Positions 597-10,408 of a stretch of 64,000 bases of DNA are shown one piece after another (within the stretch, counting starts at the first letter, position 1; every line of letters begins with the position of its first letter). The notes below the pieces were generated by a model. The model made no database searches, had not been told where the DNA came from, and saw only the letters and a program-made list of their open reading frames with translations. This stretch comes from a virus (taxonomy: Duplodnaviria; Caudoviricetes), in IMG/VR virus record IMGVR_UViG_3300020047_004811, positions 1 through 64,000 of that record. One strand, written 5' to 3'. A program made the translations under genes and the position numbers.

Positions 597-878
597 GTGA
601 CTAGAATGACAGAGAAAGAACGTGCTTACCAGCGTAAACTTGAGGCGAGACTTATAGCCGAGCGTAACGCTGAAAAGTCTAAGAACGTGGTCAAAGCTGG
701 AAACATGCCTTCTCAATGGGGACGTGTTGTCCAAAACGAGCAAAGACTTATAGATAACGGTCACTACATGAAGACAAGTGAGGGGGCGAGACTTGACTAC
801 CTTCGTGAAGAGTACCGGAAACGTAAAAAATTGAATAATGGCGAAAAAACCATTGTGCGAGTGACAAAGAAAGGGTAG
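597..878 (+). CDS. basic hypothetical protein (93 aa)
   Basis: ORF track; K/R-rich; ends just before hammerhead 1. Confidence 0.6.
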   Translation: MTRMTEKERAYQRKLEARLIAERNAEKSKNVVKAGNMPSQWGRVVQNEQRLIDNGHYMKTSEGARLDYLREEYRKRKKLNNGEKTIVRVTKKG

Positions 879-887
879 AATATCAAA

Positions 888-950
888 AGGCGAAACATGG
901 GCGATAACTTCAATCATGTCTCGGGGTTAAACTCCGACTGACGAGCCTAA
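888..950 (+). ncRNA. hammerhead ribozyme HH1 (type II)
   Basis: AGGC-GAAA(892-895); stem III ACATG/CATGT; GUC(918-920); stem I TCGGGGT-TAA-ACTCCGA; CTGACGA(938-944)-GCCT; predicted cleavage after C920. Confidence 0.9.
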
Positions 951-1352
951 AGCATTGATTTGGCTGAATTAATCCGAATTATGCGATAGAATGAAACGGT
1001 TTTCTCAGAAAAAATATGCGAGCCGTAGTGCCGTGGGGGCAAATAGCACCCGATCGTAGAGGGCAAATAGTCCGGTATCATAGTGGTGGGGTTTTTACCG
1101 TAAGGTTGAAACTTACAATTAAGTGAACCGGCTGAACGTCCTTAAACCTAGCGTCCGTGCGAAACACGACTAGCTGTGAGGTCTACGATATTCACCTGAA
1201 AAACCCGCTATAAGCCGGTATATCATGGGCTGGAACATACGAAAATGGTATTGTTCCATAGGTCAGACTCTAACTCGGGAGAGAAGGGGAATGATAAGGG
1301 AAACTTAATTCAAAAGATTATTTACAGCCCCTAGGCTATATGCTTGGGGGCT
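951..1352 (+). ncRNA. large unclassified structured RNA between HH1 and HH2
   Basis: No ORF in the track; many helices: GGGCAAATAG x2 (1037,1061), GTAAG/CTTAC 1100-1116, ACCGGCT/AGCCGGT 1127-1133/1213-1219, GGGTTTTT/AAAAACCC 1089-1096/1199-1206, TGGAACA/TGTTCCA 1231-1258. Confidence 0.7.
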
Positions 1353-1356
1353 TTCC
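1326..1356 (+). terminator. 11-bp hairpin with short U tract (possible weak terminator or 3' stabiliser)
   Basis: AGCCCCTAGGC-TATAT-GCTTGGGGGCT followed by TTCCT. Confidence 0.5.
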
Positions 1357-1403
1357 TATTAGGGTGTGCGCCCTAACTGATGAGATCAAAAGATCGAAAG
1401 GAA
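1353..1403 (+). ncRNA. hammerhead ribozyme HH2 (type III)
   Basis: TTCCT-A (CUA triplet, cleavage after A1358); stem I TTAGGG-TGTGCG-CCCTAA; CTGATGA(1377-1383); stem II GATC-AAAA-GATC; GAAA-GGAA. Confidence 0.92.
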
Positions 1404-4198: not shown

Positions 4199-4332
4199 AG
4201 GCGAAATAGGTTTGCTCCCTATGACTAGGCAGGCGATAGCTTCCCGAAGGTAGGAGTAAATAAGTAGAGTTTGTCAAGTAAAAACCAAACCTCTCACCTA
4301 TCTGTGCGTTATTCGTACACTGATGAGCCTAA
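4199..4332 (+). ncRNA. hammerhead ribozyme HH4 (type II) with ~85-nt insert in stem III
   Basis: AGGC-GAAA(4203-4206); stem III ATAGGT/ACCTAT; AUC(4300-4302); stem I TGTGCG-TTATT-CGTACA; CTGATGA(4320-4326)-GCCTAA. Confidence 0.88.
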
Positions 4333-4617: not shown

Positions 4618-5901
4618 ATGTCTAAAGTAATTGCAACTGATCTCAAACCTAAAGATTTCGTAGATATAGATGCTCCTGCTATTCGAGGCTGGTGTAATGC
4701 GGCTAAGCTTAGTGGAATGATTTCTACCATTCAAGATTATAGTATAAGTGGCGTGATGCATAAATGGGTAACTCTCGTTACAGAAAAGGGTTTTCAAGCA
4801 GCATACCTACCTCTAACTCAAGAAGTAACTAAACAAGTTATGTCAGAGAAAGAGTTGGAAACTCGGGTTATCAAAACTAATATGAGATTCTTACCTAGAA
4901 CTATTCATGGGCAAGGCTCTGACCCTGAAATGTTTGTAGTGAATAAGGATGGCATTGTTATTCCATCATTTGATTTCCTACCTTCTCACAAACAAGTAAC
5001 AGTTAATCAACCATTCTGGGATGGCTTCCAAGCTGAGTTTAATATCCCCGGAGTGTCATGTCTCGACCAAACTATTGGACACTTACAAGCTGGATTATTT
5101 AATCTATATCGTGCGGCTATCAAACATAATAAAGATGCAGCCTTAACCATTAAACCAACGCTTGAAATTCCTCCTCATATGTTAACAGAGGGTAAGGATG
5201 AGCATGTTCAGTTTGGTTGTATGCCTAGTAAGAACGTATATGGTATGAAAGGAATCCAAGCTGATGGTAAGGACGTACTTGTCCGATCGGCTGGCGGACA
5301 TATTCACCTACAGCTAGACAACAAACAAAAGAAAAAAATTGAAGACTATGTTATAGCACTCGATGCAATTCTGGGAGTTGCTTGTGTATCTATGTTCGGT
5401 AATATAGATGACCCTATCCGTCGCCAATACTACGGACTAGCGGGTGAGTATCGTACTCCTAAACATGGTATGGAATACAGAACATTATCTAATGCGTGGA
5501 TGTGTCACCCGACTATTGCTTATGTAGTATTCGAGCTTGCTCGTAAGGTTTGTACGCTAGTAGACAAAGACTTATTCAAGCATTGGCAATTCGATAAGGA
5601 TGAGGTTATTTCTTGTATCAATGAATGTAATATTCCACTAGCTATTGAAATCCTACGTAGGAATGAAGAAATGTTTAGAGATATACTATATTCATTCTGT
5701 TATAGAGATGATAAGAATGTAGATGTTCTATACAATACTTTCTTAGCCGGAGCTGAGGTATTGATCGGCGACCCTAACGATCTAGTATTCAATTGGAATC
5801 TAAATGGGCAAAGAGATTGGTCTACATCATCTTCTCGTATCCACTATATGAAAGAGCGCAATCCAAACTATAATAAGGTCGCTAAGTTAGACCTTAAATA
5901 A
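4618..5901 (+). CDS. phiEco32-like COOH-NH2 ligase type 2
   Basis: Motifs GSDPEMF, DGFQAEFN, FGCMP, RSAGGHIH, YGLAGEYR, EYRTLSNAW. Confidence 0.85.
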   Translation: MSKVIATDLKPKDFVDIDAPAIRGWCNAAKLSGMISTIQDYSISGVMHKWVTLVTEKGFQAAYLPLTQEVTKQVMSEKELETRVIKTNMRFLPRTIHGQGSDPEMFVVNKDGIVIPSFDFLPSHKQVTVNQPFWDGFQAEFNIPGVSCLDQTIGHLQAGLFNLYRAAIKHNKDAALTIKPTLEIPPHMLTEGKDEHVQFGCMPSKNVYGMKGIQADGKDVLVRSAGGHIHLQLDNKQKKKIEDYVIALDAILGVACVSMFGNIDDPIRRQYYGLAGEYRTPKHGMEYRTLSNAWMCHPTIAYVVFELARKVCTLVDKDLFKHWQFDKDEVISCINECNIPLAIEILRRNEEMFRDILYSFCYRDDKNVDVLYNTFLAGAEVLIGDPNDLVFNWNLNGQRDWSTSSSRIHYMKERNPNYNKVAKLDLK

Positions 5902-5912
5902 CAAAGACAATT

Positions 5913-5947
5913 TTAGTCTTGCCCGCCAAAATCGGCTGGCTTAATTT
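5913..5947 (+). promoter_or_regulatory. 20-nt motif copy 2 overlapping a sigma70-like promoter
   Basis: TTGCCC(5919-5924)-N17-TAATTT(5942-5947). Confidence 0.45.
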
Positions 5948-5976
5948 TATGCCCATTTTATGGGCGAGGAGTATCT

Positions 5977-6264
5977 ATGTCACAGGTAAAAACTGCTTCA
6001 GGTCAATCAGAAATCAAACGTCTTGAGGAACAACTAAAAGCACTCAAGGCACAAATTCCTTCAGTTCAAAACAAGGAAATGAAGATCACATCTAAGATCG
6101 GAGAGAAGGGGACTGTAAACTTCTACGGTCTTCGTAAGTTTCCTATCTGCTTGTTTGCTTCGGAAGTTGCTAAACTTACTAAGCTCTTTAACTCCCCTGA
6201 GTTTCAAGAGTTTGTCAAGTCTAATGCTGAATCTCTCGCTAGAAAAGAAGTTAAAGCTGAATAA
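5977..6264 (+). CDS. hypothetical protein
   Basis: ORF track; SD GAGGAG. Confidence 0.7.
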   Translation: MSQVKTASGQSEIKRLEEQLKALKAQIPSVQNKEMKITSKIGEKGTVNFYGLRKFPICLFASEVAKLTKLFNSPEFQEFVKSNAESLARKEVKAE

Positions 6265-6267
6265 TTG

Positions 6268-6303
6268 TAGGTAGTAATAGAGAGGTAACTCTCATGAACC
6301 CTA
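6268..6303 (+). repeat. 29-nt RNA module, copy 2, closed by TAGG/CCTA
   Basis: AGTAATAGAGAGGTAACTCTCATGAACCC; the flanking helix differs from copy 1 but still pairs. Confidence 0.85.
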
Positions 6304-6457
6304 AAAGGCGAAGACAGTCTAGCCAAACTTTGTTAAAGGTTAAAGAATCGGCGTGGTGCTGATTCGCTGTTTAGTTCTTTCGATTTATAAATTACTCTTG
6401 GTATAGTGAACGGATAATGGGGATAGGATGCCGTATAGAGCCTCCCCGGCTATAACA

Positions 6458-6547
6458 AGGCGAAACGGCGAGGCTGGTGAGGCACCTCATAATCAAGGTT
6501 CAATTCCTTGAGCCGTTTAGTATTTATGATACTACTGATGAGCCTAA
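6458..6547 (+). ncRNA. hammerhead ribozyme HH5 (type II) with tRNA-like insert in stem III
   Basis: AGGC-GAAA; stem III ACGGC/GCCGT; GUU(6515-6517); stem I TAGTAT-TTATG-ATACTA; CTGATGA(6535-6541)-GCCTAA. Confidence 0.88.
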
Positions 6548-6563
6548 CAAAAAAGGAATTACT

Positions 6564-6779
6564 ATGCTATCTATTCGATCAAACCGTCGTCAAATTAAAG
6601 CAATCCGAGCTAATCGTATTGAGTCAAAGCTTCCCTCACCTAAGGCAAGCCGTAAACTTAATTCATTCCCTACTTATACCAGTCGCAAGCCAACAAACAA
6701 AGAGTTAGGATTGAATAAAGCAGGGAAACCATTAGCAAGAATGTCTAGGAAACTTAGGAAAGAAATAGGATTGACATGA
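6564..6779 (+). CDS. highly basic small protein
   Basis: Start reassigned to ATG6564 (SD AAGGA after HH5); R/K-rich. Confidence 0.65.
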   Translation: MLSIRSNRRQIKAIRANRIESKLPSPKASRKLNSFPTYTSRKPTNKELGLNKAGKPLARMSRKLRKEIGLT

Positions 6780-7442
6780 CACCAGTAGATACATACATGA
6801 AGCAACGTCATATCCCCAAACAATGGGATGACTTTAAACCCAAACATTACAAGTTAACTCCTCGATTTGTAATAGATACTGAAGATGAGGTTCAAGAGCC
6901 GGATGAAGTTTGTCCGTGCTGCGAAGATCGTAATAGCTCTAAGTCTGAAGCTAAGAAAGTCTTAGTCTTGTCGGGCGATAAATAGGGAAACTTTATGCAC
7001 TCACATTATCACGTTGGATGTGTATATAAACGTGGCTCGGAATTTATCTATGTCACAGAAAAAAGACCTAGACATTCTATTGGATGCGGAGAGCATTATG
7101 TGTGGCGGGTTATAGATATTAAAACTGGAAGGCTAGGTAAGGAAGGTACTGGGTTTGGCGGGGTGATATGCGAACCTATAAACTGTGAGATACAAATTAA
7201 AATCAAATTCAAAGAGGAGTCGCATGTCCAAATCGAATCCTAGAGAAACTTGTCGATATAAGTATTGTCAAACTTTGTATTCATTACATAGAATCACTAA
7301 AGGTTCTAATCTTTCTTATGAAAAATCAGATAGTAAATGGCCTGATCTAGTATTGCGTAATAAGAAAGGTAAAAGAATAGCTACCGTTATGACTTATGGG
7401 CCTTTTGGTGGTATCAATCATGACCTTAGATATGGGGAGTAA
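6776..7442 (+). other. three small hypothetical ORFs (6776-6985, 6995-7243, 7224-7442)
   Basis: ORF track; coupled starts and stops. Confidence 0.55.
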
Positions 7443-7445
7443 GCT

Positions 7446-7616
7446 ATGGATATATTTGGACAATGGATTAATGGTAGTGCCGACTGGCATTTCCTTCATC
7501 AAAGAAGAAAAGATAATAGAGTAAGGTTCAATCATTGGACAGATGATGACTGGGATTTACGATCTGAAATAACAAAACACAAATCAGTTAAATTTAAATT
7601 AACTTTGTTATACTAA
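7446..7616 (+). CDS. FxLxL micro-protein family member
   Basis: Manual translation MDIFGQW...VKFKLTLLY (56 aa). Confidence 0.65.
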   Translation: MDIFGQWINGSADWHFLHQRRKDNRVRFNHWTDDDWDLRSEITKHKSVKFKLTLLY

Positions 7617-7644
7617 GCCAACACAAAATAGGGAGGTAGGCTTT

Positions 7645-9117
7645 ATGTCTCTAAATCTTGCAATCGGACAAAATGTAAGAATCAGTTCTGATGTTATTAA
7701 AGAAGGTGCTAAGGATGATGATCTCTTAGGAGAACTAGGTGTCCCCGGATTATTCCGACATCTAACATTCGAGATTCTCAAGCTCGAAAATGATGCTACT
7801 CGTGGGGCGATTGCTATCTGTCGCATAACTAATCCTGAGATACTGAAGACTGTAATTCCGGGGGTTAAGGAAGTCAAATATGAAGGGGAGTTAACGCTTC
7901 TTGCATCTGAACTTGTCTTAGCTAATACCAAAGTCACTCTCGATTATGTTATTGAAACAGCTAAGTCTAAGGATCAGATGATTAAGGAATTGTTTGTTAT
8001 TCGTAAGGCTCTTGAAGCCCGAGGTTTAGACAAACGAAACAAAGAGATGCGAGCTAACTGGAAGGAAATTCAAATCCTTCGAGGTGAGGTTCAAGGTGCT
8101 ATGCCAGCTATTGCAGGGGATGTTACTGTATATCTCCCTAGACAGCGGGTTCGGTTTACGCTTAAACCTAATGAAGTTCCCGGCTCTGACGAAGAATCAA
8201 TTAAGAAGTTCAAGCAACTACTAACCAATAAACTGAGGGGAATAAGATCACAACGTAAGACTAAAACTCTTGAGACTAAAGTCGTATTCGGTATGATGAG
8301 TGTTCAAAAGAGTGGCGGTGTTTATCTTCAAGAACGATCCCTTCTAACAGCATACGAGGAGATGATGAAGACAACATTAGAAACAGACAAAAAACCTATT
8401 GATCCCAAGGCTAATTACGTTGGGATTGAAATTGAGTTTATCTACAGCGGTAAGTATGAGATTCTCAAGAACCTTTTGATTGCCGCTAAACTTCATAAAC
8501 ATATCACATTGAAAGGTGATGGCTCACTTCGTTCTTGTCATAACTACGCAGGAGCTGGACTAGAAATGAACATTCTCTGTAAGACTACAGAGGTTGAAGA
8601 TGTCATGAAGCGACTTGACTCTGTGTTTGCTAACCCAGAGATCGACGGCTATACCAATCGTTCATGCGGACTTCACGTTCATGTGGATGCCCGTAACCGA
8701 GACGTTAAGCTTATGTATAAGAACTTCGTTAGGGTTCAATCAATCCTTCGAGGCTCTCAACCTGTAGGTCGTATTAAGAATACTCACTGTCGTGCAAACA
8801 CAACAGATAAACTAGAAGACCTACAGTCTGGTGGTTCTGGTGGCGGGGGTAATAGATATTGGGTTGTTAACGGTATGTCCTATGACAAGCATAAGTCTAT
8901 AGAGATTCGTATCCATGAAGGTACTGTAAACTGTGAAGACATATATAACTGGGTTGCTTTCCTCGATGCAGTTGCATCACATAAGAAAGAGATTCCTAAG
9001 AATGAACTCAAGTTTGCTGAAGACCTCGTAGCTAAGTATGACATTGACATTCCAGTTAATGCCGTCGACTACGTTGACCGCCGCATTGAACGATTTAATT
9101 CATTATCAATTGCTTAA
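7645..9117 (+). CDS. putative amidoligase (Amidoligase_2-like) with N-terminal extension
   Basis: GIEIEF, DGSL, SCGLHVHVD, RYWVVN, SIEIRIHEGT motifs. Confidence 0.85.
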   Translation: MSLNLAIGQNVRISSDVIKEGAKDDDLLGELGVPGLFRHLTFEILKLENDATRGAIAICRITNPEILKTVIPGVKEVKYEGELTLLASELVLANTKVTLDYVIETAKSKDQMIKELFVIRKALEARGLDKRNKEMRANWKEIQILRGEVQGAMPAIAGDVTVYLPRQRVRFTLKPNEVPGSDEESIKKFKQLLTNKLRGIRSQRKTKTLETKVVFGMMSVQKSGGVYLQERSLLTAYEEMMKTTLETDKKPIDPKANYVGIEIEFIYSGKYEILKNLLIAAKLHKHITLKGDGSLRSCHNYAGAGLEMNILCKTTEVEDVMKRLDSVFANPEIDGYTNRSCGLHVHVDARNRDVKLMYKNFVRVQSILRGSQPVGRIKNTHCRANTTDKLEDLQSGGSGGGGNRYWVVNGMSYDKHKSIEIRIHEGTVNCEDIYNWVAFLDAVASHKKEIPKNELKFAEDLVAKYDIDIPVNAVDYVDRRIERFNSLSIA

Positions 9118-9130
9118 AGGGAGCAAATAA

Positions 9131-10408
9131 ATGTGTAAACTACTAATCATGACCGGGATTACGGAAGGTCGTGTCGCTGAGGAATTTATTCAGCGCATGG
9201 CTATCCCTATGTCTAGGACAAATGCCCATGGTATTGGGTACTCAGCCGTCGCTTCTGACGGTGAGCTATTCTCTGAACGATGGTTGAATAACGAACAGTT
9301 CTTTAGTACAAAAGATGTTATGACTCCAAAGATTGCTAAAACTCTTGAAGCTTATGCAAATCGTTTGCCAGCCGGGGCACTTGATCTTAATTACTCACGG
9401 TTTGGCAAGCTAAACTTTGAAGATGTTCGGACAATTACAATGCATACTCGCTTCGCTACATGTGGTCGAGAGTTTGCTAACACCCATCCATTTATCTATG
9501 AAGATACTTCACTCATTCACAATGGTACAATTCGTAACGCATTCACTTCACATTACTCAACAGGTCTTGATGTAAACAAGATTAGTACATGTGATTCCGA
9601 GGCGGCTTTACAAACGTACCTCTCACAAGGGGTTAACCTTGATACTACGAAAGCTAAGGCATGGCTTGACATGCTGTCTGGTAGCTGGGCTTTTGGTATT
9701 CTTTCACGTAACGCAGCGAATAATCGTGTGCTTGATGTGGTTAGAGGAATGTCTACACTCTACTATATGGAAGTTGATGGACTCGGCAAAATCTTCACGA
9801 CTGATGACGATGATGCGAAAACAGTTATAAAAGATATGAAGCTCACCTTCACTAAAGAACCGGGGCTTGTCAAGATGGATGAGATGTATCGTTACGATGC
9901 AACTACCGGAGAATACTTGGAGAGTGTGGATATCAAACCAGTATACAAGTCGTATGGGAGTGATTACTCAAAGACAAGTGGGAGGACGACTACCGCCGGT
10001 ACTGGGGCGGGGACTACTACGACTAGCAACTCCCAATCAAACAAGACTAGTCGATTCAACGTCAAGAAACCCGGAGAAGCTCTCATGGCTCTGGTTGATG
10101 CTCTTAGGGATGACCCTAATTTCATGGCTAGTATGCCGGATATTTTTACCGTCAATTCTACCAAAGAGAATCTCAACATTGACTTTAGAAAAGTTACAAA
10201 GAACTGTGGCGATCCATCCTATCCTCTCCTCGATCGACTGGACATTTTTGATATGGTGTATGATCGTCAGTATGTTGCTATGTATGAGAAGCTATCTACT
10301 GAGGTAAGAGAGTTCGTCCGTCAAACAGATGCTCGGGAAGGATTCAAGTCAGCTCGTAAGCTTATCGAGTCATTAGATAAGAAGTCACATCTTAGTATTG
10401 TGGGGTAA
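9131..10408 (+). CDS. class II (Ntn) glutamine amidotransferase
   Basis: N-terminal MC, HGIG, HTRFAT, NTHPF, HNGTI, CDSE. Confidence 0.88.
   Translation: MCKLLIMTGITEGRVAEEFIQRMAIPMSRTNAHGIGYSAVASDGELFSERWLNNEQFFSTKDVMTPKIAKTLEAYANRLPAGALDLNYSRFGKLNFEDVRTITMHTRFATCGREFANTHPFIYEDTSLIHNGTIRNAFTSHYSTGLDVNKISTCDSEAALQTYLSQGVNLDTTKAKAWLDMLSGSWAFGILSRNAANNRVLDVVRGMSTLYYMEVDGLGKIFTTDDDDAKTVIKDMKLTFTKEPGLVKMDEMYRYDATTGEYLESVDIKPVYKSYGSDYSKTSGRTTTAGTGAGTTTTSNSQSNKTSRFNVKKPGEALMALVDALRDDPNFMASMPDIFTVNSTKENLNIDFRKVTKNCGDPSYPLLDRLDIFDMVYDRQYVAMYEKLSTEVREFVRQTDAREGFKSARKLIESLDKKSHLSIVG

Follow-up and report, generated by a model that had tools for sequence, protein, structure and literature searches.

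The window analysed here consists of bases 1-64,000 of a single virus record of 87,316 nucleotides (nt), IMG/VR record IMGVR_UViG_3300020047_004811, from an uncultured marine phage. About 0.9 kb from its left end, right after the first early gene on the plus strand, lies a stretch of 438 nt without a conserved open reading frame (ORF). It is flanked by two self-cleaving hammerhead ribozymes, called HH1 and HH2 below. The RNA between them likely belongs to an undescribed family of phage non-coding RNAs, in which both ends are made by ribozymes and for which a processing pathway and a role in trans can be proposed. The locus is arranged as follows.

606..878, plus strand: gene for a small basic protein of 90 amino acids (aa), which opens the early block on this strand.
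888..948, plus strand: HH1, a type II hammerhead, its core read directly from the sequence, with a predicted cut after C920.
921..1358, plus strand: the excised non-coding RNA, 438 nt between the two cut sites (262-439 nt in the family).
1353..1403, plus strand: HH2, a type III hammerhead, its core likewise read directly, with a predicted cut after A1358.

Stem I of HH1 is formed by 921-926 with 932-937, stem II by A888-C891 with G945-U948 (4 base pairs, bp), and stem III by 895-899 with 915-919. The core strands are CUGACGA (938-944) and GAA (892-894), the latter extended to GAAA (892-895) by A15.1 at position 895. A GUC triplet ends at position 920, which is C17. These are the defining features of a type II hammerhead: a canonical core, an NUH triplet, closed stems I and III, and an open stem II. 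In eight aligned homologues the core is invariant, and 98.4% of the alignment cells in the stems are paired, compared with 21-42% in slid controls. Compensatory changes affect 8 of the 16 pairs, five of six in stem I and three of six in stem III; stem II is invariant.

HH2 is built in the same way but with stem III open, as the type III definition has it, along with a canonical core, an NUH triplet and three stems. Stem III pairs 1353-1357 with 1399-1403, stem I pairs 1359-1364 with 1371-1376, and stem II pairs 1384-1387 with 1392-1395. CUGAUGA lies at 1377-1383 and GAA at 1396-1398 (GAAA, 1396-1399), and the UA of the triplet ends at 1358, which is A17. Across ten sequences the core is invariant and all three stems covary (96.7% of cells paired against 31-60% in slid controls; 10 of 15 pairs compensatory). 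Near-identical copies of HH2 in relatives score 26.8-36.2 bits against RF00008, for which the gathering score is 48.5, with E-values down to 6e-6. An earlier note, made from the sequence alone, had placed the two cuts after 920 and 1358, and the canonical cores and covarying stems bear this out.

HH2 also touches the next gene, which starts at 1408. The 3' strand of its stem III (GGAA, 1400-1403) lies inside the Shine-Dalgarno sequence AAGGAA (1398-1403), and the same overlap is present in relatives. Because stem III covers the Shine-Dalgarno sequence, cleavage and release should unmask it.

Homologous loci can be found in 13 places besides the window, all on contigs of uncultured phages, many of them 85-92 kb long. 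Eleven of these distinct loci were reached through the contigs of homologues of the 90-aa protein. The other two, labelled L144 and L145, were found in IMG/VR with a pattern that combines the most conserved motif of the RNA with the HH2 core. The order is the same in 14 of 14 loci: protein gene, 5' ribozyme, ORF-less RNA, type III hammerhead, next gene. On contigs that span the region, about 1.2 kb of non-coding DNA separates the unit from divergent late genes (terminase, peptidase M15), and the unit comes first after this gap.

The two cleavage sites set the boundaries of the RNA in 12 loci, and in L144 and L145 as well. Between the cuts, nine long forms measure 419-439 nt and five short or divergent forms 262-329 nt. 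The RNA is built from modules, lineage-specific arms being added to a core of about 260 nt (L144). The longest ORFs within the RNA of the 14 homologues run from 12 to 79 aa, in differing frames and with differing ends. The fragment had been described as lacking an ORF, which is correct in that its ORFs are short and none is conserved.

An exchange of ribozymes can be seen in L145. Here the 5' hammerhead is absent, and a probable type-P1 twister occupies the same slot (L145:2836-2890). It matches RF03160 with 46.4 bits and an E-value of 3e-9. The conserved strands are there, but an optional hairpin is lacking, which keeps the score under the gathering value of 67.2. At its 3' boundary L145 keeps a type III hammerhead (35.2 bits). 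Since the 5' boundary would here be cut by an unrelated self-cleaving class, it seems that the precise cut is selected, which suggests that precise excision, and not the hammerhead as such, is the feature kept. A G-rich hairpin follows the stop codon of the protein gene in L145, on the 5' side of the twister.

The excised RNA is densely structured, as had been claimed. Folded as a single sequence, the 438 nt are more stable than shuffled versions (z = -3.2). RNAalifold finds a consensus of 108 pairs in 17 helices for the nine long forms, and 52 of these pairs have at least one compensatory double change. Standard pairs fill 93.7% of the consensus cells, compared with 31-44% when the partners are slid by 1-3 columns, and none of 500 column shuffles reaches the observed pairing values. 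The RNA is also at least as well conserved as the gene beside it: nucleotide identity between pairs of sequences averages 72.7% in the RNA and 68.8% in the upstream gene, and the RNA is the more conserved of the two in 27 of 36 pairs. Well-supported helices are the HH1 stem I hairpin, P3, P6, the variable arm, P10/P11, P12, the GGGA module, P14 and P15. The main elements are listed here.

944..949, plus strand: 5' strand of P2, AGCCUA, a strand of HH1 stem II used again, pairing with UGGGCU at 1226-1231.
952..984, plus strand: P3 hairpin with the conserved loop CUGAAUUAAUCC; 7 of 12 pairs compensatory.
1008..1053, plus strand: module of 46 nt that includes a hairpin with an AAAUA loop (1034-1052), from the alignment of the nine long forms.
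1053..1189, plus strand: P6 (1053-1060 with 1182-1189), enclosing an arm and P10/P11; 20 of 32 pairs of helices 6-11 compensatory.
1197..1225, plus strand: local hairpin with a conserved C.C mismatch (C1206.C1216), which folds singly in each homologue.
1232..1257, plus strand: P12 hairpin with an A-rich loop; 4 of 6 pairs of helix 12 compensatory.
1262..1295, plus strand: universal GGGA module, CURAC-NS-GGGA-SN-GAAGG, in 13 of 13 aligned sequences; 7 of 11 pairs compensatory.
1298..1357, plus strand: 3' three-way junction of P13, P14 and P15 (RNAalifold helices 15-17).

The module at 1008-1053 is identical in all nine long forms except for one U-to-C change in L139, and its AAAUA hairpin recurs on different stems in L134, L140 and L144. 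The GGGA module consists of a stem, a 2x2 purine internal loop, three covarying pairs and a GGGA tetraloop. The variable arm inside P6 (about 1061-1142) is absent from the short form L134, and next to it P10/P11 forms a hairpin at 1149-1176 with a CGAAA loop. In the 3' junction, P13 joins GGGAA (1298-1302) to UUCCU (1353-1357), P14 lies at about 1305-1320 with the loop YCAAAAG, and P15 (1326-1352) is a GC-rich hairpin of 11 bp.

In the region at 1197-1225, which MAFFT had misaligned, the C.C hairpin is formed by every homologue folded individually. In an alignment of this hairpin 80% of cells are paired versus 26-41% when slid, with compensatory change in 6 of 9 pairs.

The P3 loop (964-975) holds a 6-nt palindrome, AUUAAU, and other sub-families carry AU-rich palindromes at this place. 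It could be a kissing-loop site for dimerisation, or a product of chance in AU-rich sequence.

The consensus also sorts the helices that the earlier note had drawn. Its hairpin with a CGUG-CGAAA-CACG sequence (1156-1168) and its 11-bp hairpin at the 3' end (1326-1352) both belong to the family. From a proposed pair of twin AAAUA hairpins only the first (1034-1052) is kept. The second, at 1061, is found in the window alone; the family uses its 5' strand to form helix 7 with a distal GUCC, and four of four pairs of this helix are compensatory. A GUAAG/CUUAC hairpin is not conserved and competes with the longer arm of the family (helix 9). Finally, two crossing helices had been read as a pseudoknot (1089-1096 with 1199-1206, and 1127-1133 with 1213-1219). 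They are complementary in the window, but in relatives 45% of their cells are paired, the same as in shuffles, and the C.C hairpin takes the place of the second helix.

The ribozyme strands left on the product appear, from the consensus model, to be used again in internal helices that tuck in both ends. P2 (helix 2 of RNAalifold) is 98% paired and nearly invariant, and P13 uses the 5' strand of HH2 stem III; among the long forms P13 shows no covariation. Sub-families offer suggestive parallels read from their sequences. The twister of L145 has an AGCCCG that may pair with the same UGGGCU, and in short forms a GAAG may face a CUUC at the 3' end.

From these features a processing pathway can be proposed. 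The sequence and the comparisons above establish the two ribozymes, the limits of the RNA, its fold and its conservation, while the later steps and the end chemistry are drawn from hammerhead chemistry and the consensus structure. The first early transcript would carry the small basic-protein gene, HH1, the RNA, HH2 and further early genes. HH1 would fold once it is made and cut after C920, and the upstream mRNA would then end in the hairpin of HH1 stem III. After this cut only the 4-bp stem II would join the two pieces, and they should therefore separate. The freed AGCCUA would later pair with UGGGCU (1226-1231), closing the 5' and central domain once the 3' strand has been made.

HH2 would then cut after A1358. 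Its U/C-rich 5' strand would stay on the RNA, pair with GGGAA (1298-1302) and close the 3' three-way junction, and the same cut would free the Shine-Dalgarno sequence of the gene at 1408. The product would be a compact, multi-domain and probably linear RNA of 262-439 nt with a 5'-hydroxyl (5'-OH) and a 2',3'-cyclic phosphate. The same ends had been predicted before, and they are to be expected of two intact ribozymes.

A stable, trans-acting immediate-early RNA for host takeover or counter-defence is a weakly held proposal; such a role is plausible given that the RNA sits in the first early unit next to a conserved basic protein. The RNA may act as a complex with this co-transcribed 90-aa protein. 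A role in trans is favoured over that of a spacer because of the invariant loops and junctions, the place in the first early unit and the constant company of the basic protein.

Several points weigh against this reading. The central domain is very different among L134, L140, L142, L144 and L145, and divergence of this kind between sub-families is unusual for one fixed molecular function. All members come from one clade, so that the constant pairing with the 90-aa protein may be mere synteny. P13 can form before the 3' strand of HH2 has been transcribed and could compete with the folding of HH2. Covariation among the long forms is silent on P2 and P13 because both are almost invariant, which is expected for strands with two jobs. 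In the window, Rfam has no match for HH1 (Hammerhead_II) even at E-values up to 10, and cmscan has none for HH2 at E-values up to 10 in a search of 531 nt (880-1410). For HH1 this is a shortfall of the curated model and not of the defining core. As Rfam reports neither ribozyme, their membership rests on the defining features and on covariation.

Alternatively, the RNA could belong to a new class of large functional RNAs that need exact, ribozyme-made ends, whether as a catalyst, as a self-assembling particle like those of ROOL or GOLLD, or as a circle closed by the RtcB of the host. This is unlikely, though it would make the interchangeable 5' ribozyme, hammerhead or twister, a natural 'cassette' for its release. 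The GGGA module and the AUUAAU loop would then be candidate contacts within or between molecules.

A second alternative, which is quite improbable, is that the RNA acts purely in cis as a leader or insulator. It would only space and regulate the operon, protecting the 3' end of the upstream mRNA and timing the action of HH2 and with it the unmasking of the downstream Shine-Dalgarno sequence, and its released form would be inert. The masking of the Shine-Dalgarno sequence by HH2 stem III fits this idea, as does the competition of P13 and HH2 stem III for the same UUCC strand. The four other hammerheads of the early region lie directly 5' of genes, and P15 with its U-rich tail resembles an attenuator or terminator. 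However, the other hammerheads of the genome do the same job without such an RNA. A spacer would need far less than some 300 nt with invariant loops and junctions and covarying helices, and the RNA is conserved as much as, or more than, the neighbouring protein gene. P15 and the U-rich tract (1326-1360) were flagged as terminator-like; a transcript terminated there would have its 3' end no more than a few bases from the HH2 cut.

Hammerhead and twister cleavage leave a 5'-OH and a 2',3'-cyclic phosphate, and RtcB joins such ends. A ligase of this type in the host could join A1358, with its cyclic phosphate, to U921, with its 5'-OH, and give a circle that resists exonucleases. The earlier note had compared the locus to a Tornado-like circular RNA. 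Besides the expected end chemistry, the probable twister on the 5' side of L145 agrees with this, and P1 and P13 of the consensus would lie one nucleotide apart in a closed form. But the likeness to Tornado finds no support in the ligases, the ends or the ribozymes. RtcB, Rnl-type ligases (RNA_ligase family) and reverse transcriptase are absent from the whole 87-kb phage genome, so the remark that no RNA ligase was visible in the window extends to the full record. Between the first and last 45 nt the longest complement is 6 nt, leaving no stem that joins the ends, and in the consensus the 5' and 3' ends are each drawn into an internal helix of their own. As a circle, the RNA is predicted to fold 4.5 kcal/mol less stably than as a linear molecule. 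The two flanking ribozymes are of different types and so cannot rebuild a hammerhead competent for ligation at the joined ends. A search by Perreault et al. for circular products of clustered phage hammerheads was negative (PMC3088659). Circularisation is accordingly given a slim chance.

It is very unlikely that the RNA is a variant or relic of a large RNA already known, such as a group I or group II intron, RNase P, tmRNA, GOLLD, ROOL or a guide RNA of the omega or bridge type. Its size and complexity are similar to theirs. The strands GAGCCGUA and GGUUC (1024-1030 with 997-1003) resemble the base of group II domain 5, and in L119 a tRNA-Glu adjoins the RNA, as tRNAs often do for GOLLD and ROOL (PMC5737381). 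The order of the domain-5-like strands is wrong, however, and they show no covariation; no reverse transcriptase is encoded in the phage genome, and among the called neighbour genes no nuclease or recombinase partner was seen.

Rfam gives no family match for the RNA in the window or in the loci of 11 relatives. The 64-kb window has nothing at the gathering score, positions 880-1410 have nothing relevant at E-values up to 10, and the relatives' loci have nothing relevant up to 1. The covariance models of GOLLD, ROOL, OLE, HEARO, group I and II introns, RNase P and tmRNA do not match the RNA. The earlier note could assign no known class, and this stands; GOLLD and ROOL, which it had named as possibilities, fail at the covariance models. 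YNNGG repeats are missing too: 921-1358 contains no run of two or more such units, where the VIPR vrRNA criterion is 9-16 tandem repeats.

The idea that the locus encodes a small protein from the ATG at 1016, which follows an A-rich leader and opens a 36-aa ORF, can practically be dismissed: most long forms have an ATG in this position that starts an ORF, but this ORF varies from 17 to 59 aa with differing ends and is missing from five members, its first 13 codons hardly vary at any of the three codon positions (a single change, in one sequence), and changes farther downstream are compensatory for RNA helices and not synonymous. As the ORF is variable or absent, conservation acts at the level of the RNA.

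Other functions were considered and dropped. Complements of at least 10 nt to the rest of the genome or to the 10-kb loci of relatives, which a guide or antisense RNA might have, occur at the chance level and their positions are not kept; this comparison set aside a 33-nt match to the contig end. Three 11-mer complements cluster at 64.2-64.5 kb, inside a large coding gene. Mimicry of 16S rRNA by CGUAACAAG, AGCCGUAG and AUCACCU was rejected, since these stretches lie in covarying stems or differ in the window.

The 33-nt match concerns bases 1-33 of the contig, which are a perfect reverse complement of 1290-1322 within the RNA. When the loci of relatives are compared, none carries a corresponding repeat, and in relatives about 330 additional bases separate the sequences that correspond to the left and right ends of the contig. 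The repeat is most likely a chimeric artefact of the contig end, or it may be a real feature of this strain. Bases 1-33 as a true target of the RNA were dropped as a candidate because such a repeat is absent from every relative.

The 87,316-nt record has a GC content of 39.6%, is rated 100% complete by CheckV and lacks terminal repeats. By the proteins of the window, the gene content is that of a tailed phage.

The late genes lie on the minus strand.

The window also encodes a ribonucleotide reductase, a primase-helicase, a family B DNA polymerase and an amidoligase cluster. From 4618 to 10408, genes for a COOH-NH2 ligase, an amidoligase and a glutamine amidotransferase-like protein follow in series, which suggests a pathway of peptide or nucleotide modification. 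The GenBank phages nearest by ribonucleotide reductase are distant, with at most 50% identity.

Homologues of the 90-aa protein form 47 clusters, and many of the contigs that carry them measure 84-92 kb; identity across the family is 52-75%. It has no family match in Pfam or PHROG. An AlphaFold2 model is mostly helical (pLDDT 71), and its conserved core is of low confidence.

Neither the protein nor the locus is found in the phages of GenBank, where blastn with 1-2400 and tblastn with the 90-aa protein gave no match; thus no cultured phage there carries either. Pattern scans were likewise unproductive. Searching IMG/VR with 20 nt of the invariant module gave no match, and a degenerate 3' motif gave three chance matches in JGI metagenomes. 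Matches to a hammerhead tail pattern were mostly due to chance, a scan with an exact 18-mer added one chance match, and a pattern scan of genome contigs gave three, in coding DNA.

Stem I of the 3' hammerhead bears insertions in L119, L126, L135 and L140. In L119 the insertion is the complete tRNA-Glu(UUC) at 5755-5826. In the other three (L126:5821-5916, L135:2806-2902 and L140:1718-1806) it is a G-poor, C/A-rich insert of about 70-85 nt with a long closing stem.

The genome carries five hammerheads in all, with cores at 938, 1377, 3471, 4320 and 6535. The last three are further type II hammerheads with CUGAUGA cores and share the frame AAGGCGAAA ... CUGAUGAGCCUAA. The one among them that ends at 4332 has an insertion of about 90 nt in stem III.

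Large, ornate RNAs of bacteria and phages that have no known job are rare, and those that have been solved tended to reveal new biochemistry. In the family described here both ends are set by ribozymes, which makes the boundaries unusually sharp. Its covariation support is strong for just 14 sequences, and the long and short modular forms point to the 260-nt core. It also appears to offer a natural case in which ribozyme strands are re-used in the fold of the product, and one in which a single hammerhead is predicted both to make the 3' end of an RNA and to unmask the ribosome-binding site of the next gene.

Parts of this arrangement are known from other systems. Clusters of hammerheads flank genes in the operons of prophages and phages (Perreault et al. 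2011, PMC3088659). As in those clusters, several sense-strand hammerheads, mostly of type II, punctuate a polycistronic phage transcript. The clusters of Perreault et al. flank variable protein-coding genes, whereas here an ORF-less, conserved and covarying RNA is flanked, and the ribozyme strands appear to be built into the fold of the product.

Ribozymes at both ends and the same end chemistry are also found in Tornado, an engineered system flanked by twisters and closed by RtcB, and in the hammerhead circles of retrozymes and viroid-like RNAs. In L145 the probable twister at the 5' end would add to the likeness with Tornado. Unlike these systems, the present locus has no end-joining stem, no ligase of the phage, two ribozymes that are not alike, and no rolling-circle or repeat layout.

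GOLLD and ROOL (PMC5737381) are, like this RNA, large multi-junction phage RNAs without ORFs, and the tRNA beside the RNA in L119 adds to the likeness. The present RNA is shorter (262-439 nt versus about 580-800), its ends are defined by ribozymes, and it is known from one clade of uncultured phages only.

Another example of phage non-coding RNAs freed from a longer transcript by hammerheads can be found in VIPR systems, whose guide RNAs lie in arrays interspersed with hammerheads (bioRxiv 10.64898/2026.04.26.720920). Unlike the vrRNAs of VIPR, the RNA has no tandem YNNGG repeats and is one large structured molecule instead of a guide array. No RAMP-like gene was noticed nearby, and no search was aimed at one.

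Finally, synthetic insulators of the RiboJ type resemble HH2, which cleaves just 5' of a ribosome-binding site and would standardise or unmask the downstream leader. HH2 differs in being natural and in doubling as the maker of the 3' end of a separate RNA. What is new in comparison with all of these is a conserved family of large non-coding RNAs with ribozyme-made ends, a 5' ribozyme whose class can apparently be swapped, ribozyme remnants that seem to take part in the fold, and a modular body.

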